A stretch of DNA of 64,000 bases from Minisyncoccia bacterium (GTDB taxonomy: Bacteria > Patescibacteriota > Minisyncoccia > Phycocordibacterales > UBA9973). Every line of letters begins with the position of its first letter. Position 1 is the first letter of the stretch. This document shows, piece by piece, positions 7,693-64,000 of this stretch. The notes beneath the pieces are model-generated. The model was not told where the DNA came from. It saw only the letters and a list, made by a program, of their open reading frames with translations, and made no database searches. A program made the translations under genes and the position numbers. The stretch spans positions 7,113-71,112 of the forward strand of contig JBAQFO010000012.1 in NCBI GenBank assembly GCA_049287305.1, read 5' to 3'.

Positions 7693-7795
7693 TGGCGGAC
7701 CTCGGTCCGCACTTGATTTTTGATGTGATTTGATGTTCTTCTGCATGCTTCCTCCTTTGCCGAGGCGGAGAATGTCTCCGCCTCGGCTTCCTGTC

Positions 7796-9376
7796 TCACT
7801 TCTTGAAACGCGCCTTTGCTTCGGAGCGCGCGTCCTCGAACACCTGCGAGAAGAATTGACGTGACGACGGTGAAACCGTCACGTGGAACGTTCTGCTCCC
7901 CGTCACCTCCTCTATGAAGCTTAGGTATCCATAGTGCTCGAGGTCTTCCAGGATGAATGTCAGGCACCTCCGCTCTCCTTTCGGGAGGTAGAGATATGAA
8001 ACATCGAAGACTTGGCCACTCGTGTGCGTAGGAAATGCCGTCCGAGCGTTGACGATTTTTCCCTTCTTGAGTAGCTCCTGATACTCAAGGTGTCTGACGA
8101 GAGAAGTCACGTCCAACGGCACGAACTCCTCTTTCGGGTAGAGCTTCACGTGCAGGCGGCGGGTTTCAAACGCCACGGTCAGCAGCGCTCCATGGGCAGC
8201 CGGAGAGTTCTGGAGGTAAAGTTCTTGATTCTCCAGGTCCTTTTCGGCGATTGGCCCATTTCCCGAAGTCCGAAGCTTGAAGCCGAAGTAATCCGGCTCT
8301 TCGAACAAGGGCTCAAGCCCTTTTCCGCCACCGTCGCGCGGGTTTAGGTCACGAAGGTTTTTGTAAATCAAGTCCTTCTTGGTGAGCCAGAACCACATGC
8401 GGCTGGGAACCTCGCCCTTTACGTTGACGTTTTCCCTGTATCTCCGGGCCAGCTTTTTGAATTTAGCTGGTTCGGTCTGGTAAAGGTCGAAGAGCTCTGC
8501 GGCTGCGACGACGCGGAACCAATAAGTCGGAGACCAATCCCTTCCCATGTGATAGCGAATCTTGTGATAGATTTTGCTATTAAATGAGGGGTGGTTGAGG
8601 AAGAAAAGCCTCGGCATTGTAACTGGTTCGCCGAAGGCCTTCTTGCCAAGAGAGACCATCTCTTTGACGCACCCTCTTCCACAGTGGAAAGCAAACACCG
8701 CCAGGTCTTCCCCGCCGAGGTCCGCCTCCAACCGTTTCAGGTAATGCGCCGCCGCGAAGATCGACTTCTTGGCGTTGAGCCTGTCGTCTTTCACCACGAC
8801 GGTGTAAGAGACAGTTCTCCACCCGGTTGCCACCTTGCGCCGCTTCTTTCCCTTCCCTTTGTATTTCCATCCTTTGGGAACTTTTTTCTTGCGAACCTCC
8901 TTATTTACCAATCCCGCATCCACCCCTGTGCCTTCGGTGAACTGCATGACTCCGCGAGGACCGGTCGGGCTTTTCGCCCTTGGGTCTCCGCAGCTTTCAA
9001 TCCAAGCCATACCTTGCAGCATGGTCTGGGAGAAACCGCTCTCACGAGCAGCTTCTCTGAAAATCGGCTGAAGAGCATTAATACGTTCGGCGCATTGCAC
9101 AGCGACCGGGCTGCGCAATATTCCAAACTTCTGCTCTTCTACCACCCTCTCTGTTCGCTCAGAGAGAGCGGTTTCCGACATGTTTTCCCGTCCTACGCCA
9201 ACCGAAAGCTGGTGTTTGGGGACGAAAAACGACGGTTTTGTAAGCGCGTTTGTCGTTGCCGTGCCCAGCGTCCGCTGGAACATGACGAAAAGAGTGATGA
9301 GGCCGGTTACGAGAAGAACCTCGCACACTGCCAACACCACCCACCACATACGAGGAACCTCTCTGCAGCTTTTCAT
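7796..9376 (-). CDS. Membrane-anchored lytic transglycosylase (SLT domain) protein, GC-rich gene
   Basis: N-terminal TM segment, then SLT catalytic signature GMAWIESCGDPRAKSPTGPRGVMQFT. GC content is visibly higher than the flanking genes, and the gene has its own terminator. Confidence 0.8.
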   Translation of the reverse strand: MKSCREVPRMWWVVLAVCEVLLVTGLITLFVMFQRTLGTATTNALTKPSFFVPKHQLSVGVGRENMSETALSERTERVVEEQKFGILRSPVAVQCAERINALQPIFREAARESGFSQTMLQGMAWIESCGDPRAKSPTGPRGVMQFTEGTGVDAGLVNKEVRKKKVPKGWKYKGKGKKRRKVATGWRTVSYTVVVKDDRLNAKKSIFAAAHYLKRLEADLGGEDLAVFAFHCGRGCVKEMVSLGKKAFGEPVTMPRLFFLNHPSFNSKIYHKIRYHMGRDWSPTYWFRVVAAAELFDLYQTEPAKFKKLARRYRENVNVKGEVPSRMWFWLTKKDLIYKNLRDLNPRDGGGKGLEPLFEEPDYFGFKLRTSGNGPIAEKDLENQELYLQNSPAAHGALLTVAFETRRLHVKLYPKEEFVPLDVTSLVRHLEYQELLKKGKIVNARTAFPTHTSGQVFDVSYLYLPKGERRCLTFILEDLEHYGYLSFIEEVTGSRTFHVTVSPSSRQFFSQVFEDARSEAKARFKK

Positions 9377-9895
9377 TTCAGTCTTTCCTTATCTGTGTAT
9401 TTTTCCGTTAGCTGTAAGCCCAAAAGGCCATTTCTTGGGTTTACAGCTAACTTTATTTTCAAGGTAGATTCTTGCGCATTATACACCTTTTAGCCTTATT
9501 TGTCAATAAGCTGGTTTTATTAAAATTGAGTGTAAAATACCCCTTTTTTATCCAACTATAGGTAAGTTTCCGAAAAAGGTGTTAAGTTTTTATTAAAATA
9601 TACACTTTTCAGAAAAAATAGGTTTTCCACATATCTCCCCTTTTAGGTTGACTTGAGGCTTTTCATTGGCTACCCTATAGGTATAGTTCTGATTAGGGGT
9701 CCGGTGCTAGCTGTCCGAATGATAGAGTTGATAGTAATAATCGTGAGAACCTTTGTGAGCAGTGCTATAGGTCGTGCTGTAATTCTACCTTATATTAATT
9801 AACTTAATTGGTAGAATAAGGAAATCTCGCGGTAATTTGTTTAGTTTATTAAACCTCAATTTAAAATATTAAGATCTTCCATTGCCTTTTTCCTC

Positions 9896-23729: not shown

Positions 23730-24173
23730 ATGAGCAAAATTACCCTTCTGGAGAAGAAGGAAATTATTGCAGTCACGCCGCATGTTCGCTTCGTGGCTTC
23801 CGATTTCTTTCGTGGTTGGCAAGTTGGTTTGAATTTTGAGAATCTGTTCCTTGGTGTTGTTGAAGAAACAGGTGGACAGTCAGTCGAGATTGAATTGCAC
23901 GACCTTTCCGAGTGGTTGGTAAACGGTCCAATCATTGAGGAGTTGGGTGGGGCGTCAAAGACGGGTATCTCTCTGGCGACCTTCGCCGCAATCGCTGCGA
24001 CCGGATGCTCCTTCGTTGCCCACGTTCTTGACGAGGACAGCAAACCCTGGGCAGTTTTCTATCGCCAAGAAGGGGCGCAGCATGTCGCCGGAGCGGATTC
24101 CACCGACTACAAATATTGGTGGTATGGCGGCGGGCGGTTTGCTTCTCCGCATCTCACCCCGTGTATTCTCTGA
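23730..24173 (+). CDS. Hypothetical protein (GC-rich island gene 1)
   Basis: 147-aa ORF with a GC-rich codon profile and an upstream AAGAAAGGA ribosome-binding site. Confidence 0.5.
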   Translation: MSKITLLEKKEIIAVTPHVRFVASDFFRGWQVGLNFENLFLGVVEETGGQSVEIELHDLSEWLVNGPIIEELGGASKTGISLATFAAIAATGCSFVAHVLDEDSKPWAVFYRQEGAQHVAGADSTDYKYWWYGGGRFASPHLTPCIL

Positions 24174-24287
24174 CAATTGGTTTACTAAATAGAAACACAT
24201 GCGTGTAGTTTGTGTGTTCACCTGACTGAGTGTGGGTTTCCTGCACTTTCCATTAACTCCGGTAACGCCAAAAAAGGAGGTGAAAAC

Positions 24288-24497
24288 ATGAACCGCAACA
24301 ACGAAGAGACGTTCGAACTGGAGTGCCGACATCTCGTCCAATTGCTCCGGCAAGAAGAGGGGTTGTCTCTGCAAGATCTGCAGGATCAGGACAACCCTGT
24401 CGCGCTCGAGCTGGTGGAAGACTTCTGTGAAGAGGCTGGAATCTCTCGAGAGTGGTTCGAGGGGTTCGTGGGTCGGATGATTCTAGCGCTCAATTGA
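24288..24497 (+). CDS. Small acidic protein (GC-rich island gene 2), paralog of gene 3
   Basis: Start at the internal ATG, 5 nt after AAGGAGGTG. Product MNRNNEETFELECRHLVQLLRQ...DNPVALELVEDFCEEAGISREWFEGFV. Confidence 0.5.
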   Translation: MNRNNEETFELECRHLVQLLRQEEGLSLQDLQDQDNPVALELVEDFCEEAGISREWFEGFVGRMILALN

Positions 24498-24698
24498 GCG
24501 TACGGGAGAAGCACCGCTTCCGCCGACAACAATCGCACGCCCGCAGACGCGTAGTTTGCTGGGCATTGCAATTGGATATTGGTTTAACCAATATCTTCCA
24601 TCAACCTGGGTTCTGGCTCAGTTCAAACTGAGCTGCAGTGCGAGTCGCTCTAACAAAGCGACTCGCACTGCCCCAAAACTGCGTGAAAGGAGAAGCAG

Positions 24699-25106
24699 AT
24701 GCACAGCAATTCCACCCTCAACATCCTCAACGAGGAAGCCGCCGAGCGAGAGCTCCGAGGGCGACGGACCAGCAAGCAGTGCGAGTCGCTTGAGTGGCAA
24801 TGCCGGCTACTCGCCAACGTGCTCGCCGCCTGCTGCCTGACCATCAGCGAACTCGAGGATGACCCGACCTCAACCGACCGTGTCGCAGAAATTTTCTGCC
24901 ACGACACTGGTCTCGAGCGGGGAGACTTCGATCGTCTCGTTCAGGACGTGCGCGCCACGCTTGCCTCGGCGAGCCGGAAGCTGAGAGATACGTCTCTCAG
25001 GTTCCGCGGGAGTGGAGGTCGGCACCGAAACCTCGACGAGGTTGAGCGTCAGCCCGACCCCCTGGGACGTACTCGGGCTCAGTATGGCTGGTGGCCGAAA
25101 GACTGA
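24699..25106 (+). CDS. Hypothetical protein (GC-rich island gene 3), paralog of gene 2
   Basis: AAAGGAGAAG ribosome-binding site. The segment ...LEWQCRLLANVL...DDPTSTDRVAEIFCHDTGLERGDFDRLV aligns with gene 2. Confidence 0.5.
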   Translation: MHSNSTLNILNEEAAERELRGRRTSKQCESLEWQCRLLANVLAACCLTISELEDDPTSTDRVAEIFCHDTGLERGDFDRLVQDVRATLASASRKLRDTSLRFRGSGGRHRNLDEVERQPDPLGRTRAQYGWWPKD

Positions 25107-25181
25107 GCTGCAGCACGGGTCGTTGGATGACCAGCGATCCGTGCTGCCCCACTACCACTTCAAATGTAAGGGGCACAAGAC

Positions 25182-25448
25182 ATGACACGCAAAGTAGAAA
25201 ACGACAGCGATGCAGAAAGTCTCCACAAGAGGCTCCAGCAGATCAATGGGGTGCGTAAGCAGCACGGAGAAAACGACAAAACCATCGCTGCGCTGACAGA
25301 ATCTCTCTCGCATGACGGTTTCTCGGACGAGGGAGAAGCTTGGAATACACTGGTAGAGTACTATCAAACTCACCGTCGCGTTGAAAAGATTTACGTGGCA
25401 GATCGACCTCTGTTTCCAGACGGCAGAAAGTCGTGGTATCCGCTGTAG
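25182..25448 (+). CDS. Hypothetical protein (GC-rich island gene 4)
   Basis: 88-aa ORF with an upstream AAGGGG ribosome-binding site. Confidence 0.45.
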   Translation: MTRKVENDSDAESLHKRLQQINGVRKQHGENDKTIAALTESLSHDGFSDEGEAWNTLVEYYQTHRRVEKIYVADRPLFPDGRKSWYPL

Positions 25449-27233: not shown

Positions 27234-28142
27234 TTAAGGTTTGTTGTGAAATTTTTTATGAATGTCCCGTAGGTGCTTATCGGTGACGTGAGTATAAATT
27301 TGCGTGGTGCCAATATTGGCATGTCCAAGTATTGCTTGGACCGAACGCAGGTCAGCGCCGTTGCCGAGCAGGTCGGTGGCAAACATGTGTCTCATGACGT
27401 GCGGAGTAACCTTTTTGGAAATGCCTGCTTTGATTGCATGTTGTTTTACTATACGTTCAACCGATCTTTTGGTCAGAGGACTTGCTTCTCCTTTTTCTTT
27501 ACCCATTTGCACAAAGAGCGCCTCGCTCATATCTTTGCGAGCTCCAAGATATTTTTTTACAGCATCTTTCGCGTCTTCCGATATAAAAACTACCCGCACT
27601 TTTCCTCCCTTCCCGCGTATAGACAGCTCATCTGAATGTAGGTCTATATCCGAGGTTAGGGAACACAATTCGGAGACACGGAGACCAGTAGAAAACAAAA
27701 GTTCAAGAATTGCTTTGTCCCGCAGGTCTTTTAAGTCAGACCCGCTTGGAGACTTTAAAAGTCGGGACAACTCTAAATGAGTAATTAAATCCAGAGACCT
27801 TTCTCCCACTTTAGCGAGCTCTATTCTATCAGGAGACATGGAGCTTATATTTTCTCGCGCCAAGTATTTTAAAAATGCCCTAATAGCGATAAGGTAGTAA
27901 TTTTGAGTTTTTTTAGAAAGCGTATCTCCGGTAGCTTTGTTGTTGCCAGTTGACTGTCGGTTGAGCCATAGGCGGAATTCTCGAACTACGGTGTCGTTTA
28001 TTTTACCGGGGTCATCTAATTTTATATATTGTAGAAATACAGAAAGGTAGTGGTCATAATTTTCTACAGTCTTCAGGGCTCGTCCTTTTTCTATTTCTGT
28101 ATATTCCAAAAATTGGGTTTTTAGTTGCTTTAAGGATGCCAT
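27234..28142 (-). CDS. xerD: Tyrosine site-specific recombinase XerC/XerD
   Basis: Catalytic-domain signature RHMFATDLLGNGADLRSVQAILGHANIGTTQIYTHV. Confidence 0.85.
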   Translation of the reverse strand: MASLKQLKTQFLEYTEIEKGRALKTVENYDHYLSVFLQYIKLDDPGKINDTVVREFRLWLNRQSTGNNKATGDTLSKKTQNYYLIAIRAFLKYLARENISSMSPDRIELAKVGERSLDLITHLELSRLLKSPSGSDLKDLRDKAILELLFSTGLRVSELCSLTSDIDLHSDELSIRGKGGKVRVVFISEDAKDAVKKYLGARKDMSEALFVQMGKEKGEASPLTKRSVERIVKQHAIKAGISKKVTPHVMRHMFATDLLGNGADLRSVQAILGHANIGTTQIYTHVTDKHLRDIHKKFHNKP

Positions 28143-54282: not shown

Positions 54283-54445
54283 ATTGGCGCGACGCTCTTT
54301 TATTAAGTTTTTAAAAATAAAAGCCCTGTTCTGGCAGGACTTATACGAGAAAAGTATATCACATTACTACTTTAGAGGCAAGGCTTGAAAAGTTCCTCCA
54401 TTTATCCACAGGCCTAATGATTGTTTTTACTATTGTGTTATAATT

Positions 54446-57400
54446 ATGTGCATGAGTAAAAAATCTATTGTGCGATTTTATTTGCGTCCTGTTTTTTATG
54501 TGTTTTTGGTTACGGTAGCGTTAGTCCTTACTTTTACTATGTTCGTGCCCGCTTCCGCGTCTGCAGCAACGCTTAGCATCCAGCTTAGCGATAGCGCTTG
54601 CGGAGGCACCCGCGCCGGTTCTGCTGCGACTGCCTCTGCCAGCGGGACTGCGAGCGACTGGTCGGGTTATGCCATAGATTCCAATGGCTACGATGCAGAC
54701 TGCGCCAAAGTAGACATGGCGGGAATTACTGAAAGTATGGATTTCCGCGTAGGTATCCAGCTTACTGATGGGGACGCTGGTTGTAGTAGCTCCGAAGCCG
54801 GAACTTCAAGATTGTCTCCTTGGGCTAGCACCGGAGGAGGTTATACAGCTTGGGCTTCGGATTCAAATTCCTATGACCCGGACTGCGCTCAGGTTTATCT
54901 TGAAACCCGGCCCGCTCCTGACGGCGCAGCCATAAAAAACGCAAGCGTACAACTACAGGCCTCCGACAATGCCTGTAGTTCTCAGCTGGGTTCTTCTGTA
55001 GCGGGGGCATGGGTAACAGATTCCAACGGCTACGATTTTGACTGCCTCCGGTTAAAAGTGGTGGCAGACGTTGTTCCGCTCGGCACAGTCACGGTCCAGA
55101 CGCAGGCCTTCGACAAGGATGGCAATCTTATAACCAGCAAACCAGCAGTCAGTTGGACAATAAGTGGACCTCCTGGCGCGCCCAACTGTAACGGTACCAA
55201 TCTTACTGAAAAAACCTGCGAACGCATGCCCTACGGTTCTTACGCTTTTAATCCGGATGGTGTTGATGAAACGATAGGAACAAAAACTTATGAATTTATC
55301 GGTGTGGTTACTCCCCAAACGTTAGGCACGACATCTCCTCCGGCAGGGGCTTGTCCTTCCGGTCAGGCCAATCCTCACCTTGAGTATAACTCAAGCGGTT
55401 CCTGCGGATCTGTAAACAGCTGTGGCGCATCTGAATGCTCCGTTGGCGGCGGTGGCGGCAATGGTGGAGGGATGGACCAACAACTCAATTTTCTGCCGAG
55501 ATCTTCCATATTCTCTGTAATTAAATCTTTTTTCGTAACCAAGAAAGCTTCGGCTCTCCTCGCGGAAGGCGGGTACTGTCAAATTCCTACTGGCAGTGAG
55601 GGGGGTAGTTGTGGAAGTTCCCAGGCTACGTGTTTTAGTCCGTGTACTTGGTATGAACCTGGGGACGGCGGAGGTGATCCTTTGCCGACTCCGCCACCGC
55701 CAAACGACCCGCCACCGACACCCGTCCAGATCTTTTTTACTATCCAATATAAAGAAAAGGCGGTCGTTACCCCTACAGCTTCTTGCACCGTGTCTCCAGC
55801 TTCACCGATGGCAAATGGAACTAACCCAACAATTACTTTTACCACAAATTCGTCTTCAAATTACTGTTATGTTCGTAACGACAATCTCCCAAGCACTGGA
55901 AATCCTGCCCTTCCTGGGTCAAATTTCCCATCAGTAGCAGCACAACCACTTCAATTATCTGGAGGAAGCGATATATACAGCCCCGGAGCTCTATCAGCAG
56001 GGATTCATAATGGTACTATATATTGCCAAACCACATCTGGAACAACGATTACTGAGCCTAATAGCGGGTGGCAGTCTTGTCAATATACTGTTAGCGCTTC
56101 AGCAACTTACGATGTTCTTGGTACCCATAATAGCGGGGGAACAATAACTTCCACCAATCCTAGAACGAATATTGCCGCGGGGGCCTCTACAACTTTTACT
56201 CTTTCTCCAACCGGAACAAACGTAGTAGACAAAACAGATGTTTCCAGCACATCGACTTCATGTGTCTTAAACACAAGTGGATGGTCGGGCAACACCTACA
56301 CCACGGGCGCAATTAATGCCGACTGTACCTACTCTTTTAGTTTTAAATCAGGAGTCGTTTCACCGGTTCCTTACGTTGACCTTACGGCTTCAACTCCAAC
56401 CCCTACTACGGCCGCGATTGGAACACCCGTGACCTTCTCTTCAGCAATTTCCAATGATGGCACAGCTTCTACCGGAGCTTCTTTCTACAACCTGTTCCAA
56501 GTAGCAACGGCAACAAATGGTGGTGGCACAATTACGAGCCTTACTCCGGCTCTTTCCACCACTACTTTGAACGCAGGGACAACTAGGTCTGTTAATTCTC
56601 CTTCATATACATTTACCGGTTCAGCTGGAACGCGTTCAGTTCGCGCTTGCGCTGACAAGAATTCTGTCGCAGGCACGGGAACAATTTCCGAAGCATCTCC
56701 GGGGAGTGAAAACAACAACTGTAGCGCGTGGAGAAACGTGTTAGTAGGCAGTTCTTACGTTGACCTTACGGCTTCAACTCCAACCCCTACTACGGCGACA
56801 GTAGGAGTAGCGCAGACGTTCACTTCTACTATTACAAACAGCGGAACTGTCTCTACTGGAGCAGGTTTTGCAAATCTATTTCAAACATCCACCTTAGCTA
56901 ATGGTGGGGGAATAGTGACCGACTATCTAGTTAGTCCTAATATGAGTTCCTTGTTGGCGGGCACAAATGCTCCAGCTACGAAATCAATTACGTTTTCTTC
57001 AGCGGGAACTATATATATGCGTGCCTGTGCAGATAAAAATTCCGCTACCGGAACCGGAACAATTTCAGAAGTATCTCCGGGGAGTGAAAACAACAACTGT
57101 AGCGCGTGGGTAGCGATAACATTGATTCCTCAGGGAACAATAGCGGGAACGCACGATCAATATAGTGGCACAGTAGCTTCCTCGTCTCAATGTCATGCTG
57201 ATGGGTGGGCTGCTTACTCTACGGATAAAGCTCTTGACCTTAATGTCAGAATTTTAAGTGACGGAGTTTCGGTAGCGACCGGGGTGGCTGGAACTTATAG
57301 GGCAGACTTGCAAGCAGCAGGAGTTTGCACAGGGGGGACGTGTGGCTTTTATATAAATTTGGCTGGGGTGATAACTCCAGGAGTTAATCATGTAATCACA

Positions 57401-58246
57401 GCTCAGGCGCAAAATCCCGCTACTCTTGCTTGGACCTCTCTTGCCTCCACTCCCAAAACACTTAACTGTCCTTCTTCCATAGACTTAACGGCCTCCGCTC
57501 CCACTCAAAATACAGCGACAATAGGCTCAGCTAAAACATTCACTTCCAACATTTCCAACGCTGGCACAAACTCAACAGGAGTTTCTTTCTACAACTCTTT
57601 GCAAGTAGCAACGGCTGCCGGTGGTGTGGGCGCAGTAAATCCTCTTATTGCGTCAACACCTTCTCCTATGACAGCTCTTACTGCCGGGACATCATCCACC
57701 GCGAGTGCTTCTTACACATTTACCGGTTCTGCGGGAACCCGTTCGGTAAGATTCTGCGCAGATAATAATACATCCATGTCGGGAACAATAACAGAGACTC
57801 CTGCTGCCAACGAAAACAACAATTGTAGCTCTTGGACAAATGTTATCGTTAGCGCCGCTTGCTCCGCCAACCAAGGCAACGCTTGCTCTTCTTCTCCTAA
57901 CTCTTGCGGGCAAGTAAGCTCAGGTGTAATTCAATGTAGTGGTAACTGCTCAGCTTCAACCCCTTCGGAAAGTAGTTGTACCGGGGGAGTGTGCACGAAT
58001 GGCTCAACAAATTATCCTACTTGTAATAATGTGTGTGCCAACGGAGCAACTAATCCACCTACCTGCGACATCAATCCTGGCGCTAATGGGGTATGTTCTC
58101 CAAATCACTACAGCTGTTCTTCTCCTACTGCAAGCACAAGCAACGTAAACGCCCCCGACAGGTGGACATGGATATGTCCCGGGATAAGCGGGACAAACGC
58201 TTCGTGTTCCGAACTCAAAAAGAAGCCCATCTTTATTGAAGATTAA
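54446..58246 (+). CDS. Giant secreted Thr/Ser/Gly-rich surface protein with CARDB-like repeats and Cys-rich C-terminus
   Basis: Signal peptide. Three roughly 55-aa Cys-pair repeats (DSNGYDxDC), then three roughly 120-aa CARDB-like repeats (YVDLTASTPTPTTA...ENNNCSAW) that are nearly identical at the DNA level. C-terminal region with about 20 Cys. Confidence 0.8.
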   Translation: MCMSKKSIVRFYLRPVFYVFLVTVALVLTFTMFVPASASAATLSIQLSDSACGGTRAGSAATASASGTASDWSGYAIDSNGYDADCAKVDMAGITESMDFRVGIQLTDGDAGCSSSEAGTSRLSPWASTGGGYTAWASDSNSYDPDCAQVYLETRPAPDGAAIKNASVQLQASDNACSSQLGSSVAGAWVTDSNGYDFDCLRLKVVADVVPLGTVTVQTQAFDKDGNLITSKPAVSWTISGPPGAPNCNGTNLTEKTCERMPYGSYAFNPDGVDETIGTKTYEFIGVVTPQTLGTTSPPAGACPSGQANPHLEYNSSGSCGSVNSCGASECSVGGGGGNGGGMDQQLNFLPRSSIFSVIKSFFVTKKASALLAEGGYCQIPTGSEGGSCGSSQATCFSPCTWYEPGDGGGDPLPTPPPPNDPPPTPVQIFFTIQYKEKAVVTPTASCTVSPASPMANGTNPTITFTTNSSSNYCYVRNDNLPSTGNPALPGSNFPSVAAQPLQLSGGSDIYSPGALSAGIHNGTIYCQTTSGTTITEPNSGWQSCQYTVSASATYDVLGTHNSGGTITSTNPRTNIAAGASTTFTLSPTGTNVVDKTDVSSTSTSCVLNTSGWSGNTYTTGAINADCTYSFSFKSGVVSPVPYVDLTASTPTPTTAAIGTPVTFSSAISNDGTASTGASFYNLFQVATATNGGGTITSLTPALSTTTLNAGTTRSVNSPSYTFTGSAGTRSVRACADKNSVAGTGTISEASPGSENNNCSAWRNVLVGSSYVDLTASTPTPTTATVGVAQTFTSTITNSGTVSTGAGFANLFQTSTLANGGGIVTDYLVSPNMSSLLAGTNAPATKSITFSSAGTIYMRACADKNSATGTGTISEVSPGSENNNCSAWVAITLIPQGTIAGTHDQYSGTVASSSQCHADGWAAYSTDKALDLNVRILSDGVSVATGVAGTYRADLQAAGVCTGGTCGFYINLAGVITPGVNHVITAQAQNPATLAWTSLASTPKTLNCPSSIDLTASAPTQNTATIGSAKTFTSNISNAGTNSTGVSFYNSLQVATAAGGVGAVNPLIASTPSPMTALTAGTSSTASASYTFTGSAGTRSVRFCADNNTSMSGTITETPAANENNNCSSWTNVIVSAACSANQGNACSSSPNSCGQVSSGVIQCSGNCSASTPSESSCTGGVCTNGSTNYPTCNNVCANGATNPPTCDINPGANGVCSPNHYSCSSPTASTSNVNAPDRWTWICPGISGTNASCSELKKKPIFIED

Positions 58247-58470
58247 AAGGATATTAAAGTTATCCACAGCAAAAAACTCGCAATTGCCTTTGCGGGTTTT
58301 TTGTGGTATACTACTAAAGACTATCATAGTTCGCGTTCGCTGTTCCTTGATTTGACTTCTGTCGCATAGTTTTTTGTGCGATGACTATTTACGTGTCGGC
58401 ATAGCTCTCTGTTCGCAAATTCACCTAACTACCCACTTCTTCGAAAGAGTGGTTTGAGGAGGAGGCTGTC

Positions 58471-59229
58471 ATGCGTCGCTTCGTTTTGCTGTTTGTGTTG
58501 TTCTCACTGCTGTCCTCCTCGGTGGAGGCAGCGAGCCGTCGACGGGCCGTGCGGTTTCCGTCTCCGGAACCTGTTGTTCCTCCAGCTCCTGCAGTCACCA
58601 CTGTTCTCACTGTGATCTACGAAGATCCGGATGGGAACGGAGTGACTAATGCATGGGTTGGAGCGCAGACACTTGGTCCGGCTCATAAAGGGGCCAAGTT
58701 TGTCCGGTCGGTCAAGAAACCGGGGGACAACGCGTTCTCTCTGCTCGGCAACACGGTCGTGGAGGCACACCAGGACGGGATGTATCGGACGTTCTGGCTC
58801 TTCTATGGCGAGGAGTTTTACGATCAACTGCCGGATGGCACCAAGCTGCCGTGGCGGCCTGGTATCGCCATCTACAAGGTGGAAGAGACTTCGCCGGAAG
58901 GATTGGTCACGGAGTCCTACACTCAGGTGCAGGTGCCGCTTCGTGCGGAACCGGTTGCCGGGTTTGGGCCGCTTCTCAAAGCTGTTCCCACAGCTGACGG
59001 AAAGCGCATCACTCTGTATGGAGTATTTGCCACCCCGCCAGTGGCCATGCTCTATCACAGAGAGGGTCCGGGGCTCTACCGGAGCCAGGAGGTGAAGGTC
59101 ATCAACAACGAGGTTCAGGTTCCGGAAGGGATGGCGGGGCAGGATTCCCCTCTGGTCGTGTGTGCGGGTTATTCCGCGGCGGATTGCAACACCGTCGAAG
59201 TGGACATCCCGAACCCTCCGAAGTTCTAA
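58471..59229 (+). CDS. Secreted protein encoded in a GC-rich insert
   Basis: GAGGAGGAGG ribosome-binding site, signal peptide MRRFVLLFVLFSLLSSSVEA. Very GC-rich by eye. Confidence 0.6.
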   Translation: MRRFVLLFVLFSLLSSSVEAASRRRAVRFPSPEPVVPPAPAVTTVLTVIYEDPDGNGVTNAWVGAQTLGPAHKGAKFVRSVKKPGDNAFSLLGNTVVEAHQDGMYRTFWLFYGEEFYDQLPDGTKLPWRPGIAIYKVEETSPEGLVTESYTQVQVPLRAEPVAGFGPLLKAVPTADGKRITLYGVFATPPVAMLYHREGPGLYRSQEVKVINNEVQVPEGMAGQDSPLVVCAGYSAADCNTVEVDIPNPPKF

Positions 59230-59322
59230 CGCACAACAATCACAACTTCACTCTGGTTGTTTTCTTGCTGGAGTGACAAGAAGTCAAACAATCATCAACC
59301 GAGTCGCAAGGCTCAATCCCCA

Positions 59323-59370
59323 GTCCTCCTGTCTCGCTTCGGCGCAGACAGGAGGACATAAGGTTTTTTA
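59323..59370 (+). terminator. Intrinsic terminator after the GC-rich secreted-protein gene
   Basis: 12-bp stem gtcctcctgtct/agacaggaggac followed by GGTTTTTT. Confidence 0.65.
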
Positions 59371-59424
59371 ATAAAGCGTTTTAATAACATCCCAAGCGGG
59401 ATTTTTTTTGTTATACTATATAAG

Positions 59425-61185
59425 ATGCAAATAAATGAAGAGCAGGTAAAAAAATTTATTTTGGATTCCGGAATTGTTTCCAAGAAAGATTTAGCGGAAG
59501 CTGTCCTTAAGGCTGAAAAACAGAAACAAAAAATCGGAAACGTTCTCCTTTCCGACGGCAAAATATCGGAAACAGACATGAGGAGGATGGAAGCTTTTGC
59601 CTTAGGTATTCCGTTTATAAATTTAAGCGACCAAAAAATAGATTTTTCGGTGCTATCTCTTATCCCGGAGCCAATTGCCCGCAATTACAATATCGTTGCC
59701 TATAAAAAAACTGAAGAAAAGTTGGAGGTGGCAATGCTAGACGTAGAAGATTTATCAGTTATTGATTTCATAAAAAAACGTTCCGGGCTGAAAATTTTAC
59801 CCCGTTTGACCGACGAAGCCTCTATCAAGGCTGTTCTCGTGCAATACCGCCAAAGCTTGAAGGCAGAGTTTCAAAACATAATACAGAAAGAGGCGAATAC
59901 GCTCAATGCTTCGGCAAAAGAAGACGGAGAAAAGCCCGCGGAAAAATCCGAATCCGAATTGAAAAAAATGGCAGAAGATTTACCAGTGGTGAAAATCGTG
60001 GACTCTCTCATATTCCACGCGATTTTACAAAACGCTTCCGACATCCACATAGAGCCGGGAGAAAAGGAGTTGACGGTGCGATACAGAATTGATGGCATTC
60101 TTCATGACGCTATGGCGCTCGATAAAGCCGCTGGGGCGGGAATAACGGCGCGTATTAAAGTTTTGTCCAACCTGAAGCTGGATGAAAAGCGTCTTCCTCA
60201 GGACGGCAGATTTAAAATAGAACAAAACGGGGAAAAAATTTCTTTTCGTGTTTCAACTCTGCCTACTTTCTTCGGAGAGAAAACGGTTATCAGAATCCTG
60301 AAAGAAACTTCTCACGGGTTTTCTCTGGAAACCCTTGGCTTTCACGGCGAGGGGCTGGAGAGAATTCATAATTCTTTAAAACAAAAAACGGGAATGGTGC
60401 TGGCCACAGGGCCAACCGGTAGCGGGAAAACAACAACGCTTTATACCATGCTTGATATTTTAAACAGGCCGGAAGTTAATATTTCCACCGTTGAAGACCC
60501 TATAGAATACCAAATGCCGCGGGTAAACCAGACCCAAGTTAAGCCTGAAATAGGGCTAACCTTCGCCAACGGCCTCCGGTCGCTTCTCCGACAAGACCCG
60601 GACATAGTCATGGTAGGAGAAATACGCGACGGCGAAACAGCTGGGCTTGCTATTAATGCCTCCCTTACTGGGCATCTGGTGCTTTCTACTATCCACACCA
60701 ACTCAGCAGCGGGTGCAATTCCCAGGATGCGGGATATGGGAGTGGAGCCATTTCTTATAACAGCTACGGTCAAGACAATAATAGCTCAAAGATTGGTGAG
60801 AAGGCTTACCCCGACTAAAGAAAAGTATTTTTTGTCGCCTGCTGAGTTGGCTAATTTGAAAAAAATAGTGGACATGGACCGGGTTCTTGGATTTTTGAAA
60901 GATGAAAAAATAGTGGGAGCCGATGACGGCTGGGATAAAATTCCTTTTTATAAGCCTGTGCCTTCCAGCGAATTTGAGGAAGGATATTCCAGCCGAACGG
61001 GTATGCACGAAGTTCTTAAAGTTACTTCCACTATCAAAGATATGATAATCAAAGGAAGCTCTCAAGACGAAATTGAAGCTCAGGCGAAAAAAGAAGGAAT
61101 GATGACCATGATAGAAGACGGCGTTTACCAATCCGTGCTCGGGGTCACTACCTTGGAAGAAGTGTTTAGGGTTGTTTCCGAATAA
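59425..61185 (+). CDS. pilB: Type IV pilus assembly ATPase PilB (GspE family)
   Basis: Walker A GPTGSGKTTT plus the GspE N-terminal domain. Confidence 0.9.
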   Translation: MQINEEQVKKFILDSGIVSKKDLAEAVLKAEKQKQKIGNVLLSDGKISETDMRRMEAFALGIPFINLSDQKIDFSVLSLIPEPIARNYNIVAYKKTEEKLEVAMLDVEDLSVIDFIKKRSGLKILPRLTDEASIKAVLVQYRQSLKAEFQNIIQKEANTLNASAKEDGEKPAEKSESELKKMAEDLPVVKIVDSLIFHAILQNASDIHIEPGEKELTVRYRIDGILHDAMALDKAAGAGITARIKVLSNLKLDEKRLPQDGRFKIEQNGEKISFRVSTLPTFFGEKTVIRILKETSHGFSLETLGFHGEGLERIHNSLKQKTGMVLATGPTGSGKTTTLYTMLDILNRPEVNISTVEDPIEYQMPRVNQTQVKPEIGLTFANGLRSLLRQDPDIVMVGEIRDGETAGLAINASLTGHLVLSTIHTNSAAGAIPRMRDMGVEPFLITATVKTIIAQRLVRRLTPTKEKYFLSPAELANLKKIVDMDRVLGFLKDEKIVGADDGWDKIPFYKPVPSSEFEEGYSSRTGMHEVLKVTSTIKDMIIKGSSQDEIEAQAKKEGMMTMIEDGVYQSVLGVTTLEEVFRVVSE

Positions 61186-61207
61186 TTTGGCTTTGTTTTT
61201 TATAAAA

Positions 61208-62425
61208 ATGATTTTTTCTTACAGCGCAAAATCAAAAACAGGAGAGATGTTGGAGGGGGTCGTGGATTTTCCGGACCGTTTTTCGGCGATGCGGGATTTG
61301 CGTTCCAAGGGGTATACCCCCATTTCGGTTACCGAGAAGGGGGGAGGCTTGGAGGACAAATTTGCTTTCATGCAGGATATTTTTTCCAAAGTAAGCGTTA
61401 GCGAGCAAATTATTATGACGAAAAACTTAAGCGGAATGATAAAAGCGGGGCTTTCTCTGTCGCGGGCTCTTTCCGTATTAAAAAAACAGACAAAAAATCC
61501 GAAACTTAGTGAAATTTTAGTTTCTGTTTCCAATGATATTAATTCCGGAGAAACTTTTTCTTCAGCTCTTGCGAAGTTTCCAAAAGTTTTTTCAAAACTA
61601 TTTACTTCCATGGTTCGGGCGGGGGAAGAGTCGGGAAATTTGTCTGGCGCGCTTTCGGATATCGGAATAAACTTGGAGAAGTCACACTCTTTAACGAAAA
61701 AAGTCAGAGGCGCCCTTATTTATCCGGGGGTGATAATGTCGGCGATGGTGGTTGTGGGAGTGCTTATGTTCGCTTTCGTTGTCCCAACCCTGGCCGGCAC
61801 ATTTAAAGAGCTTGGTGTTGTCCTGCCTATGTCTACCCGGCTTATAATATTCGTTGGGAACTTTTTCTCCAATAATCTTATTTTGACTTTTGTTATTTTA
61901 ATTGCCGCCGCCTCTTCTCTGTTCTTTTTATTTCGGGCGAAATTTATGGCAAGATACATAGATTTTGTCGTTATGAGAATCCCGGTGATTGGCCGCTTGG
62001 CTCAGGAAATTAACACCGCCCGAACGGCTCGAACTATTTCTTCTCTTTTGTCGTCAGGGGTTTCTATAGTTCGGGCGGTGGAAATTACGGAAGAAGTTGT
62101 CCAAAATGTTTTTTATAAAAAAGTTTTGAGAGACGCCAGGGAGGGGATTGAAAAAGGAGCCCCCTTTTCCAAGGTCTTTGAAGAAAACACCAAGCTCTAC
62201 CCCGTGATGATGGCGGAAATGGTCGCGGTGGGAGAGGAGACGGGAAAGCTCTCAGATATGCTTTTGCAAATTGCTCTTTTTTACGAGGAAGAAATTGAAA
62301 ACAAAACAAAAAATCTTTCTACAATCATTGAGCCAATATTGATGATTTTTATCGGTGCTGGGGTCGGATTCTTCGCCATATCAATGATATCTCCTCTTTA
62401 TTCTATCTTGGGGAATATTAATTAA
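61208..62425 (+). CDS. pilC: Type IV pilus platform protein PilC (GspF family)
   Basis: Two GspF repeats. Start taken at the internal MIFSYSAKSKTGE codon, which matches the usual PilC N-terminus; the track start at 61172 overlaps pilB. Confidence 0.85.
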   Translation: MIFSYSAKSKTGEMLEGVVDFPDRFSAMRDLRSKGYTPISVTEKGGGLEDKFAFMQDIFSKVSVSEQIIMTKNLSGMIKAGLSLSRALSVLKKQTKNPKLSEILVSVSNDINSGETFSSALAKFPKVFSKLFTSMVRAGEESGNLSGALSDIGINLEKSHSLTKKVRGALIYPGVIMSAMVVVGVLMFAFVVPTLAGTFKELGVVLPMSTRLIIFVGNFFSNNLILTFVILIAAASSLFFLFRAKFMARYIDFVVMRIPVIGRLAQEINTARTARTISSLLSSGVSIVRAVEITEEVVQNVFYKKVLRDAREGIEKGAPFSKVFEENTKLYPVMMAEMVAVGEETGKLSDMLLQIALFYEEEIENKTKNLSTIIEPILMIFIGAGVGFFAISMISPLYSILGNIN

Positions 62426-62480
62426 TACTTATCCCCATATCTTATTTTGATGGTTAACCTTAAGTTGTATAATTAAGTTA

Positions 62481-64000
62481 ATGCTTATAACTAAACAATC
62501 CGTCTTCTTTTTTATTATATTTATTTTTGTATCAAGTATTTTTTTACCAACATTTGTTCGTGCAGAAACTTACATAGGTGACATTAGTATAAATAGTACG
62601 GGAGGAGGTAACTGTGCTCTTGTTGGTGTTTGGGATGATTTAGACAAAACCTGCACGCTAACTAAAGATCTTTCAGGACCATTAAATATTGGCTCCACTG
62701 GCATTACTCTTGATGGTGCTGGACATACTGTTTCAAGAAATGTTCAGGCTCCTTTCTTCCAAAGATTGGGAATAACCGTAAGCGGATCTAATGCAGTTAT
62801 CAAAAATATAAACGTTGAAAGTTTTTCCAGCTGTCTAGTTTTTAATGGCGGTACAACAAATAGTCGAGTTGAAAACTCTGCTTTTTCTTATTGTGGTAGT
62901 CACGGAATCTATCTTTTCAGCTCTTCGGGAGGGCACACGTTTTTAAATAATAATTTTACTAAAAATTTTCTTGGAATTTTTGTAAACTCACCGAACAACA
63001 CAATTGAAGGGAATGCATTTTCTGCAAACAATACTTATGGGGTAAGAACATATTTTGTTTCAAATAATACTATTAAAAACAATATTTTCTCTGACAATGG
63101 GTTTGGTTTGCGGATGGAATATGGTATTGGAAATAAAGTTACTGATAACACAATACAAAACAGTCGCTCAAACGGAGTGTACGCATTTTCTTCTACTCAA
63201 AATCAAAATTACATTGTAAATAATAATTTTATTAATAATGGAGATGGGCAAGTTAGCTGGAATGATTTAAATCAGTATTATGATGCGATGCCCGTGGGGG
63301 GTAATTATTGGAGTGATTATGATGCGCCGAGCGAGGGGTGTGCAGATTTAAATTCTGACAGTATTTGTGATGGACCAAGATATTTCAACATTTATAACCA
63401 TACATACGGAGATTTTAATCCATGGGTCAGGCGCGATGGATGGAAAACTTCCCCTCCTACTTGTTTTGATGGAATACAAAACCAAGATGAAACCGACGTT
63501 GATGTGGGCGGAGTATGTAAAATTCTCAGCTCAGAAAAATCAGTCATTTCATTTAGTTTTGAAAGCTTAACACCAAGTGTTGCCGGTGTTGTTAATGAAA
63601 CTGATCACACTATTTCTGCGACTGTTCCATTTGGTACCGATGTCACAGCCCTTATTCCAAGTATAGTTATTTCTACGGGAGCATCTATTGGCCCCAGTGA
63701 TAATTTAGCTCAAGATTTTAGCAGTCCTGTTGCTTATACAGTTACGGCAGAGGATAAATCAACTCAAGCATATACAGTTACAGTAACTCCTTCCTGTGTC
63801 GTGGACTGTTTTTCAAGCGTGCTTTTCTTGCCAGGACTTGAGGCAAGCAGATTATATACACCGAGAACAGATGGAAGCGAAGACCAGCTTTGGGAGCCCA
63901 ATGGCAATAGCGACGTGGAAGACTTATATTTAAATACCGACGGGGGGAGTAGGAATTCCAATATTTATACCCGCGATATTATAAAAGAGACCAATACGCC
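62481..64000 (+). CDS. Secreted right-handed parallel beta-helix repeat protein, 3' end beyond window (partial)
   Basis: Own translation from ATG 62481 is stop-free to the window end (506 codons): MLITKQSVFFFIIFIFVSSIFLPTFVRA signal peptide, then PbH1-type repeats (NNNFTKNFLGIFVNSPNNTIEGNAFSANNTYGVRTYFVSNNTIKNNIFSDNGFGL...). An extended -10 element TGTATAAT lies upstream. Not in the ORF track because there is no stop in the window. Confidence 0.7.
   Translation, partial: MLITKQSVFFFIIFIFVSSIFLPTFVRAETYIGDISINSTGGGNCALVGVWDDLDKTCTLTKDLSGPLNIGSTGITLDGAGHTVSRNVQAPFFQRLGITVSGSNAVIKNINVESFSSCLVFNGGTTNSRVENSAFSYCGSHGIYLFSSSGGHTFLNNNFTKNFLGIFVNSPNNTIEGNAFSANNTYGVRTYFVSNNTIKNNIFSDNGFGLRMEYGIGNKVTDNTIQNSRSNGVYAFSSTQNQNYIVNNNFINNGDGQVSWNDLNQYYDAMPVGGNYWSDYDAPSEGCADLNSDSICDGPRYFNIYNHTYGDFNPWVRRDGWKTSPPTCFDGIQNQDETDVDVGGVCKILSSEKSVISFSFESLTPSVAGVVNETDHTISATVPFGTDVTALIPSIVISTGASIGPSDNLAQDFSSPVAYTVTAEDKSTQAYTVTVTPSCVVDCFSSVLFLPGLEASRLYTPRTDGSEDQLWEPNGNSDVEDLYLNTDGGSRNSNIYTRDIIKETNT

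Follow-up and report, generated by a model that had tools for sequence, protein, structure and literature searches.

The window analysed here is a 64,000-nt stretch of DNA from a Minisyncoccia/Paceibacteria (CPR) bacterium, and its last part covers the upstream half of a gene cluster for a type IV pilus (T4P). Of the components that define such a pilus, a PilB/GspE-family ATPase, a PilC/GspF-family platform protein and class III prepilin genes are present. Every gene listed in a preliminary description of this DNA exists at the coordinates given there, and its overall picture, in which a CPR bacterium carries a T4P locus with large, secreted, adhesin-like proteins, is upheld by the gene identities and by the pilin genes found downstream. 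The features that the following account relies on are these:

54402-54410, + strand: TTATCCACA box, 28 nt 5' of an extended -10 element, TGTGTTATAAT, ahead of the giant gene
54446-58246, + strand: giant gene, an open reading frame (ORF) for a 1266-aa secreted modular surface protein, with Pfam CARDB matches in three stretches
54446-54565, + strand: signal-peptide-like N-terminus of the giant protein, MCMSKKSIVRFYLRP, with a hydrophobic core and ASA/A, read directly from the translation
54578-55045, + strand: three Cys-pair repeats of about 53-61 aa each, ending DSN[GS]YD.DC (repeat family D4)
56372-56746, + strand: CARDB-like module 1, aa 643-767
56756-57124, + strand: CARDB-like module 2, aa 771-893
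57476-57850, + strand: CARDB-like module 3, aa 1011-1135
57854-58216, + strand: Cys-rich C-terminal module with 14 Cys and the conserved block GVC.P.HY.C...WTW.C.G....C
58217-58243, + strand: C-terminal tail KKKPIFIED-COOH of the giant protein, an instance of the clade-wide [KR]KKP-x-[FY]-x-E-x
58260-58268, + strand: second TTATCCACA box, 38 nt 5' of the gc252 -10 element
58269-58304, + strand: terminator-like hairpin 3' of the giant gene (-19.5 kcal/mol), with an A-run and a T-run on either side
58284-58312, + strand: gc252 promoter, TTGCCT, 17 nt, TG-extended TATACT
58456-58465, + strand: gc252 ribosome-binding site GAGGAGGAGG, with a small GAAA-loop hairpin (58435-58454) on its 5' side
58471-59229, + strand: gc252, gene for a 252-aa secreted protein with two predicted Ig-like beta-sandwich domains
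59323-59369, + strand: gc252 terminator, a GC-rich hairpin followed by a T-run
59389-59417, + strand: pilB promoter region with a small hairpin, a T-run and TGTTATACT; the corresponding L088 stretch is nearly identical
59425-61185, + strand: pilB, T4P assembly ATPase with an N-terminal MshEN domain
61172-62425, + strand: pilC, platform protein with two T2SSF domains (NCBI start at 61208)
62481-64000, + strand: first 506 codons of a gene, running past the window end, whose 1110-aa secreted product carries beta-helix, DUF5018 and LCAT-like hydrolase domains

The pilus genes are readily recognized. PilB matches PF00437 (T2SSE) over its full length (E 2.6e-122) in addition to MshEN, and is 63-86% identical to its counterparts in 80 Paceibacteria/Nomurabacteria loci; PilC matches PF00482 (T2SSF) in two stretches (E 2e-59). 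A search for pilin genes downstream, as had been suggested, located three prepilin ORFs on the same contig just beyond the window end (17780-19309 in L001), with the N-termini KG/ISVMEVL, RG/FMLIEVL and EG/YAILELF, each with Gly at -1 and Glu at +5; their NCBIfam matches to ComGE, PilV and GspI are weak and below cut-off. The conserved core of the cluster consists of pilB, pilC, these three prepilin-like genes and a 578-aa pilin-like protein, and a scan of the window ORFs showed no pilD, pilM/N/O or pilT. The ORF left open at the window end, from 62481 onward, has matches to Beta_helix, NosD and DUF5018, in keeping with its first reading as a secreted beta-helix protein. This gene is AT-shifted (GC3 0.295) and, together with a gene for a 125-aa membrane protein, forms a second insertion that parts pilC from the pilin genes, a place that is empty in nearly all relatives.

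Upstream of pilB lie two further genes for secreted proteins. The giant protein begins with a signal-peptide-like sequence, as predicted, and its three Cys-pair repeats are equally real, with DSN[GS]YD.DC at aa 78, 139 and 192 and spacings of 183 and 159 nt. NCBI annotates this gene with a start at 54452 and a product of 1264 aa. The CARDB assignment made by eye agrees with Pfam (PF07705, E 6.4e-10, 39.6 bits against a cut-off of 22.7, three stretches), and Ig-like modules are also present. About 20 Cys had been counted at the C-terminus; the last 130 residues contain 14 and the whole protein 47. The gene has a GC2 of 0.61 but a GC3 of 0.40, and therefore its raised GC stems from amino-acid content. 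Orthologues in L088 and L027 are 42% identical over aa 1-1135 and 64% identical over aa 1-439, respectively.

The second gene, gc252, lies in a segment that is indeed GC-rich, with a GC of 0.55-0.60 over about 58400-59300 as against 0.37-0.47 in most of the window. Both the ribosome-binding site ascribed to it, GAGGAGGAGG 5 nt 5' of the ATG, and a terminator of its own, a -29 kcal/mol hairpin at 59323-59357 followed by a T-run, could be confirmed. Its GC3 of 0.66 exceeds the gene mean of 0.437 +/- 0.08 by 2.7 sd, and its leader (GC 0.44) and 3' UTR (0.50) lie above the intergenic median of 0.37. The codon-position values (GC1 0.65, GC2 0.45, GC3 0.66) resemble what we take, from published codon-position regressions, to be those of a gene of a ~58% GC genome. 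The predicted fold of the protein is a generic Ig-like sandwich that offers no functional lead. The best structural match is RbmA, a biofilm matrix protein of Vibrio cholerae (PDB 4be5), which shares with the predicted gc252 structure a small secreted format and two FnIII/Ig-like sandwich domains.

Separate promoter-like and terminator-like signals accompany the giant gene, gc252 and pilB; the interval upstream of pilB holds two separate transcription units in this genome. The TTATCCACA box, whose sequence is the DnaA-box consensus, occurs in five perfect copies in the window (0.45 expected), and in L027 and L088 it keeps the same position upstream of the giant orthologue. Across the compared loci, a -10-like hexamer follows 24-42 nt downstream of 49% of TTATCCACA copies, compared with 14% of control 9-mers.

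Comparison with about 85 related loci places both genes in a hypervariable slot. Gene order is kept across these loci (TF, hyp, PPase, nusA, slot, pilB, pilC, pilins), with nusA and pilB divergently transcribed, and the interval between them ranges from 0.1 to 9.8 kb; in eight loci nusA directly adjoins pilB, leaving an empty slot beside an intact pilus core. Slot content across loci includes HExxH-motif proteins, lipoproteins and Ig-like proteins, and the large proteins are mosaics of common modules in differing order, the number of CARDB-like modules varying from 0 to 5. GC3-outlier ORFs are concentrated here (11 of 96 ORFs in the slot versus 4 of 639 elsewhere; odds ratio 20.5, p = 1e-7), and those enriched are genes for secreted proteins.

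What these heterogeneous proteins share is their last few residues. The giant protein stops 9 residues past its last Cys, without a hydrophobic segment, and its tail recurs: among the 914 ORFs in the compared loci that encode at least 200 aa, 36 end in P.[FY].[ED]., where 0.25 would be expected. The tail-bearing ORFs encode proteins of 220 to 2928 aa, and every complete one has a signal-peptide-like start. All but one of the 36 lie upstream of pilB on the pilB strand, in a sample whose loci, except one, were picked via pilB or gc252 and which thus covers these neighbourhoods and not tail-bearing proteins elsewhere in the genomes; 25 of the 36 stop within 150 nt of the pilB start. The exception, in L085, sits beside a gc252 homologue, with no pilB in the 20 kb of sequence covered there. 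No NCBIfam model matches the tail in the giant protein or in two other tail-bearing proteins, and a literal-string search of a paper collection found no mention of the motif. Known C-terminal sorting signals were also considered, and no curated model for LPXTG/sortase, PEP-CTERM, other exosortase, archaeosortase, rhombosortase or T9SS CTD signals matches. Finding one tail on proteins whose bodies are otherwise unrelated points to a handling step downstream that they have in common.

We consider it probable that this is a T4P cluster with a hypervariable nusA-pilB slot, in which the tail-bearing proteins serve as interchangeable surface- or host-binding modules and gc252 as their accessory partner. 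Under this model, Sec would export the tail-bearing proteins, and the conserved C-terminal tail would then retain them at the envelope or the pilus. Recombination between the conserved flanks, combined with module shuffling, may reshuffle slot content among related genomes, which would diversify binding specificity.

The strongest competitor is that gc252 and the large secreted proteins belong to the general envelope or matrix, or act as secreted enzymes, and are functionally unconnected with the pilus, and that the slot is a tolerated integration hot spot. The adjacency of the large proteins to pilus genes could be nothing but a permissive insertion site, and several observations are consistent with this: the extreme heterogeneity of slot content, the transcription of slot units apart from pilB, the L085 pair with no pilB in its 20 kb, and the eight loci in which an intact pilus core does without any cargo. 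It accounts poorly, however, for a tail common to unrelated bodies, for the closeness of most tail-bearing ORFs to pilB, and for a position and orientation kept across PilB identities of 63-86%. We find it doubtful. Starting from the preferred reading of exchangeable surface-binding modules, one can go further and propose that the tail is an undescribed coupling signal that loads Sec-exported adhesin or enzyme cargo onto the Paceibacteria T4P machinery, or exports it through that machinery, with the gc252 family as a dedicated adaptor or chaperone and the nusA-pilB slot as an episymbiont host-range cassette. Such a signal would mirror, at the C-terminus, the N-terminal docking peptides of TcpF and CofJ. 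This extension is speculative, and we think it unlikely.

The distribution of the gc252 family bears on both its role and its origin. HMMER searches of 1.84 billion representative proteins returned 18 homologues only; those with readable context are all in CPR-type loci, and at every locus with readable neighbours the homologue adjoins a large secreted protein. In L088/L094 the nusA-pilB slot reads giant orthologue, gc252 homologue, then pilB; homologues also occupy the slot in L084, L011 and L090, and in L085 and L092 they lie beside a large secreted protein. Promoters resembling that of gc252 precede the homologues in L085, L087, L088, L011 and L090. The family's GC3 is always above that of the host yet tracks it, the difference being about +0.11 to +0.25 (gene/host 0.66/0.42, 0.75/0.58, 0.71/0.60, 0.50/0.25, 0.47/0.26 and 0.48/0.29).

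These data weigh against the proposal that segment 58290-59370 was recently acquired by horizontal transfer from a lineage of high GC, possibly the host's, and landed inside the pilus locus. Part of that proposal stands: the composition of gc252 is anomalous, GC3 and both UTRs being shifted as in an acquired islet, the gene is a self-contained transcription unit with its own promoter and terminator, it is missing from 79 of 80 species-representative relatives, and non-homologous GC3-rich genes for secreted proteins gather in the same slot of other genomes. But this is no random insert, since in four other genomes gc252 homologues occupy the nusA-pilB interval, with a promoter and leader that are of local CPR type and homologous among family members. 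The donor sought in high-GC genomes did not materialize, as no homologue was found there, and no donor lineage outside the recipient clade was identified. Neither an integrase, a tRNA nor flanking direct repeats or a target-site duplication occurs near gc252; the similar sequences at the segment borders are promoter consensus and are present in L088 too. Searches of phages, plasmids and IMG/VR gave no hits. With so few homologues, mostly between nusA and pilB where their context is readable, and a GC3 that follows the host, we regard recent import from a high-GC lineage as improbable.

It had also been suggested that the CARDB repeats, nearly identical in DNA, render the giant gene recombination-prone, with phase or length varying within populations. 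A 35-mer quoted as occurring twice does so exactly, at 56697 and 57075 (0 expected by chance), and two exact patches join modules 1 and 2, of 43 nt (56370 and 56754; offset 384 nt) and 37 nt (56695 and 57073; offset 378 nt). No other exact patches join these two. Among the three modules, DNA identity is 68, 67 and 62%, and protein identity 64, 61 and 51%. Wherever they overlap, two independent Logan assemblies agree with the NCBI MAG contig at 100% identity; of the two extra assemblies only L002 reaches the giant gene end, from 57080, and so this identity does not span the junction of repeats 1 and 2. Although the in-frame patches are in principle long enough for rare RecA-dependent deletion or duplication, and the number of CARDB-like modules differs among related proteins (three here, four in L088 and L027, five in L009), repeats that are 62-68% identical are too diverged for a phase-variable label, Tandem Repeats Finder reports no array among them, the simple-sequence tracts on which classical phase variation depends are absent, and no copy-number variation shows in what the assemblies share. 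We regard variation within populations as very improbable.

Most CPR/Patescibacteria are uncultivated, and how they recognize and hold partner cells is known largely from a few Saccharibacteria. If the slot does store exchangeable surface-binding proteins, and the tail does direct the handling of cargo, candidates for host specificity could be selected in any Paceibacteria genome by a simple rule (signal peptide, tail, and position upstream of pilB), and binding and localisation could be tested with a concrete peptide. That GC3 stays elevated in gc252 and other slot genes additionally provides a clean case for weighing repeated import against gene-specific selection in tiny genomes.

The arrangement invites comparison with the non-pilin T4P tip adhesins PilY1 of Pseudomonas and Myxococcus and PilC1/C2 of Neisseria. 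These, too, are large, signal-peptide-bearing, non-pilin proteins encoded in or beside a T4P cluster, in which a variable adhesive body is joined to a conserved C-terminal part thought to couple to the pilus, a coupling that would apply here only by conjecture. Unlike them, the giant protein has no detectable beta-propeller (no PilY1/Neisseria_PilC match in Pfam or NCBIfam at E 0.1 or better), its conserved part is a tail of 9-10 residues only, and the genes lie upstream of pilB and not within the minor-pilin operon. TcpF of Vibrio cholerae and CofJ of ETEC are secreted or displayed via type IVb pili, and a short terminal peptide docks them on the tip minor pilin. By analogy, pilus coupling could be signalled by a short linear motif at one end of a secreted protein that is otherwise unrelated; the motif considered here is at the extreme C-terminus and not N-terminal, however, the proteins are 5-20 times larger, and binding is conjectural.

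Extracellular proteins that are large and rich in Cys are known from CPR bacteria (PMC4736985, PMC4508563). The Cys-rich proteins of Peribacteria (PMC4736985) and adhesin-like proteins of OD1 (PMC4508563) resemble those described here in size, signal peptide, high Cys content and beta-rich repeats, as well as in strain or species variation and a presumed role in attachment; the consulted parts of those papers mention no link to a defined nusA-pilB slot, common C-terminal tail or partner family. In cultivated Saccharibacteria, T4P mediates host binding (PMC11623550), and by analogy loci such as this one may mediate host attachment. There, T4P-2 of TM7x, with its adhesin candidate PilX2, implicates a CPR pilus in host recognition (PMC11623550). 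Both cases combine a CPR T4P system with a large accessory protein as presumed adhesin; PilX2 is pilin-like with a beta-propeller, whereas the candidates described here, in a different class of organism, are non-pilin, putative Sec substrates built from CARDB and Ig modules.

The type IV pilus (T4P) cluster at the 3' end of the window is best read as conserved machinery flanked by exchangeable cargo, in which the cargo would comprise Sec-exported, modular, Cys-rich surface proteins with a common C-terminal tail, accompanied in some cases by a small two-Ig-domain partner, here gc252. All of the open reading frames (ORFs) named in a preliminary description of 54446-64000 are present at the coordinates it assigned, and Pfam finds three CARDB stretches in the 1266-aa protein as well as matches to Beta_helix, NosD and DUF5018 in the open-ended last ORF.

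Genes of the T4P cluster in the window
54446-58246, + strand: giant gene, encoding the 1266-aa secreted protein
58471-59229, + strand: gc252, encoding a 252-aa secreted protein
59425-61185, + strand: pilB (T2SSE and MshEN domains)
61172-62425, + strand: pilC (two T2SSF domains)
from 62481, + strand: beta-helix/LCAT gene

On the full contig, the beta-helix/LCAT gene encodes 1110 aa and has an LCAT-like hydrolase domain in addition. It is followed, in order, by a gene for a 125-aa membrane protein, three prepilin ORFs and a gene for a 578-aa pilin-like protein; the downstream pilins that the preliminary description suggested looking for are these three ORFs, whose N-termini are of textbook prepilin type, with G at -1 and E at +5. 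Promoter-like elements of the form TTGCCT, 17 nt, TG-extended TATACT, or variants of it, precede the giant gene, gc252 and pilB individually, and each of these three also has a terminator-like hairpin of its own. JBAQNI010000003.1 (GCA_049303715.1, a Minisyncoccia bacterium MAG, CPR/Patescibacteria) is 100% identical to the window. From the end of the giant gene across gc252 and as far as the start of pilB, the sequence recurs with zero differences in two Logan assemblies made independently (SRR28062879 and SRR28062869), so the junctions are not an assembly chimera.

We compared 80 loci that surround PilB homologues of 63-86% identity; every one comes from a MAG of Paceibacteria/Nomurabacteria type. 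They keep a conserved gene order: trigger factor, hypothetical protein, pyrophosphatase and nusA, followed by pilB, pilC and three pilins. The distance between nusA and pilB varies from 111 nt to 9.8 kb, with the two genes directly adjacent in 8 loci, and this interval thus constitutes a hypervariable cargo slot. In the 46 loci with both flanks, 11 of 96 slot ORFs are GC3 outliers (GC3 at least 0.18 over the locus median), vs 4 of 639 ORFs elsewhere (odds ratio 20.5, p = 1e-7); the slot thus gathers GC-rich genes for secreted proteins quite generally. Most of these outliers encode unrelated secreted proteins or lipoproteins, several with an HExxH motif (L020:6052-7161, L060:3901-5307 on the - strand, L025:4515-5777, L027:8582-9877 and L015:7626-8876 on the - strand; L numbers denote loci fetched for comparison). 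In relatives, zincin-like metalloproteases thus look like recurrent slot cargo, with a single weak Pfam match, to Peptidase_M10. Another recurrent slot component, absent from the window, is a protein of 150-185 aa, anchored in the membrane at its N-terminus, that immediately adjoins a tail-bearing large protein in several relatives; its gene lies upstream in L020 (7316-7774), L024 (7542-8036) and L060 (5643-6194), and downstream in L054 (4816-5313) and L056 (4698-5732).

The large + strand ORFs of the slot have very different bodies, built as mosaics of common modules, and like ends. Across all fetched loci, 36 of 914 ORFs of at least 200 aa carry P.[FY].[ED]. at the C-terminus, where 0.25 would be predicted from internal positions. 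All 36 share the strand of pilB; 35 of them are located upstream of that gene, and the remaining one, in L085, adjoins a gc252 homologue. In 25 cases the ORF stops no more than 150 nt from the pilB start. Sizes span 220-2928 aa, and every complete member has a signal-peptide-like start. The tail consensus is [VI]-K-K-K-P-[ITG]-F-[IKE]-E-[NQFGD]-COOH, represented in the giant protein by KKKPIFIED. Since it follows either a small four-Cys module (the giant protein, L088, L084, L014, L027) or an Ig-like domain (L085, L011, L007), the tail behaves as an independent linear motif. It is without a hydrophobic anchor, no NCBIfam model matches it, and a literal-string literature search for the motif returned nothing relevant. 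A word-seeded search with the C-terminal 130 aa of the giant protein gave six candidates and at least one match, also tail-bearing, a result that carries little weight on distribution.

Because the tail is strictly conserved on unrelated bodies at one genomic position, we infer from these sequences that it would couple the cargo to the pilus or envelope. The main competing explanation is that the slot is merely a tolerated insertion site whose proteins act independently of the pilus.

HMMER searches of 1.84 billion cluster representatives identified 18 homologues of gc252, at 32-45% identity; a word-seeded search gave only gc252 itself, and its profile version at least six proteins. Family members share the blocks KPG..F, DFYD.LPDGT...W.PG.A.FKVE, GPL..A.VS.DGK and GYP.AECSTV.VDIP, and most have RRRAV..PS directly after the signal peptide. 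Wherever the surroundings could be read, members occur in CPR-type loci and adjoin a large secreted protein.

Surroundings of gc252-family members in relatives
L088/L094: 1484-aa giant orthologue, 302-aa gc252 homologue, pilB, in the order seen in the window
L084: gc252 homologue, 839-aa tail-bearing protein, pilB
L011: divergent gc252 member, 908-aa tail-bearing protein, pilB
L090: nusA, gc252 homologue, CARDB protein cut by the contig end
L092: frameshifted gc252 member, then a large secreted protein cut by the contig end
L085: gc252 homologue and 870-aa tail-bearing protein, with no pilB within the 20 kb examined

In L027, a 431-aa HExxH protein takes the position of gc252 beside the giant orthologue. 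The peptide RRRAVR(F/H)PSPEP, which follows the signal peptide in gc252 (aa 22-32, window 58534-58566), also occurs internally (aa ~175) in this unrelated, GC3-rich protein (L027:8582-9877), and may be a processing or sorting site. A degenerate DNA pattern for gc252 retrieved five metagenomic loci; two are true members, both in CPR-type loci, and the other three, on high-GC contigs, are chance pattern matches rather than relatives. One homologue, P0011, lies on a 1190-nt Logan contig (L091) with a GC of 0.58 throughout and a perfect inverted repeat at its two ends (L091:1-20 and 1171-1190; TTGCTGGTTGCTGGTTGCT); the repeats stem either from the assembly or from a small mobile unit, as its terminal inverted repeats. 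In the gc252 family, a small hairpin with a GAAA loop sits directly 5' of the ribosome-binding site (window 58435-58454, L090:2170-2190, L088:9975-9995), and with three sequences and one compensatory pair it is too weak to claim as a conserved RNA element. Rfam matches on the gc252 unit are at chance level only.

The preliminary description saw in the GC-rich insert with gc252 a candidate horizontal acquisition. The composition of gc252 is indeed anomalous: GC1, GC2 and GC3 are 0.65, 0.45 and 0.66, where the genes of the window average 0.50, 0.35 and 0.44, and the shift extends to the leader and 3' UTR. Family GC3 exceeds host GC3 every time (0.66/0.42, 0.75/0.58, 0.71/0.60, 0.50/0.25, 0.47/0.26, 0.48/0.29), and the promoter and leader start are homologous between members. 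Judged by PilB (82-86%) and NusA (82-89%), genomes with gc252 homologues are no more distant from the window than the rest, yet identity falls to 25-38% for the gc252 homologues and to 42-64% for the giant orthologues. Import of slot genes from a GC-richer gene pool stays a live explanation, in keeping with the slot's general accumulation of GC3-outlier secreted-protein genes. The GC3 excess of gc252 may also have arisen through repeated exchange within CPR, or through selection on this particular gene in favour of G/C-ending codons. The family's recurrent position, its promoter of local type and a gene GC that tracks host GC argue against a single acquisition from a host lineage outside CPR. 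No gc252 relatives were found in phages, plasmids, IMG/VR or PHROGs. Similar sequences at the gc252 borders resembled a target-site duplication and proved to be the local promoter consensus; L088 is nearly identical over the stretch upstream of pilB. The giant gene (GC 0.49) has a GC3 of 0.40, at or below the genome mean, and a GC2 of 0.61, so its raised GC comes from amino-acid content.

The three Cys-pair repeats reported for the giant protein are real, and its C-terminal region, credited with about 20 Cys, has 14 in the last 130 residues. Its CARDB-like modules (aa 643-767, 771-893 and 1011-1135) had been called nearly identical in DNA; they are only 68, 67 and 62% identical there (64, 61 and 51% in protein), and Tandem Repeats Finder detects no array. 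The sequence quoted as occurring twice is one of two exact patches common to modules 1 and 2, 43 nt at the module start and 37 nt at its end; the gene as a whole is no near-identical repeat array. The patches are offset between the modules by 384 and 378 nt, respectively, in frame both times, and judging from sequence could support rare unequal recombination. There are three modules here, four in the L088 and L027 orthologues and 0-5 in other slot proteins; the architecture of the giant protein is therefore plastic over evolutionary time. A sequence search of the PDB gave no match to it.

In most relatives showing both, pilC runs into the pilin genes without a gap, which makes the beta-helix/LCAT insertion all but unique to this genome, with one distant counterpart in L012. 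Together with the gene for the 125-aa protein (window 62481-64000 and beyond; L001:14011-17722, the same contig extended), it forms the second insertion into the pilus cluster, with the bias reversed: GC3 is 0.295 and 0.238, respectively, vs 0.44. The pairing of a beta-helix of NosD/pectate-lyase type and a lipase-like hydrolase suggests that the protein degrades envelopes.

A 9-mer, TTATCCACA, that equals the DnaA-box consensus has five copies in the window, vs 0.45 expected.

Copies of the 9-mer in the window
14362, + strand
38833, + strand
45550, + strand
54402, + strand
58260, + strand

It recurs at L027:3366, L088:5283, L090:3087 and many other slot promoters, and is conserved upstream of giant orthologues. 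Its distance upstream of a -10 element is ~28-40 nt at both 54402 and 58260, as it is in many related loci. With copies dispersed and at a fixed distance from -10 elements, we rejected an oriC; rather than a replication origin, the box would seem to be an operator or UP-like element placed upstream of promoters in this clade. Elsewhere, a second GC-rich island (7750-9400, GC ~0.50-0.59) holds a candidate foreign gene, an ORF at 7796-9376 (- strand, GC3 0.65) for a 526-aa protein with an SLT lytic-transglycosylase domain, whose PHROGs matches are confined to phage transglycosylase and endolysin domains. A third (23900-25400, GC 0.50-0.66, 0.51 in intergenic DNA itself) contains ORFs 23730-24173 and 24699-25106 (+ strand; GC3 0.55 and 0.72) with no match in Pfam or PHROGs; a tyrosine recombinase gene (27234-28142, - strand) lies ~2 kb away.

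The cargo would presumably serve in adhesion or host recognition, given its domain types, published work on surface proteins of CPR (PMC4736985, PMC4508563) and the analogy with Saccharibacteria, where host binding was found experimentally to depend on T4P (PMC11623550). Within the limits of our searches, the nusA-pilB cargo slot, the tail motif and the partner family of gc252, in which GC3 is persistently in excess, appear to be undescribed; T4P loci and large Cys-rich adhesin-like proteins are already known in CPR.
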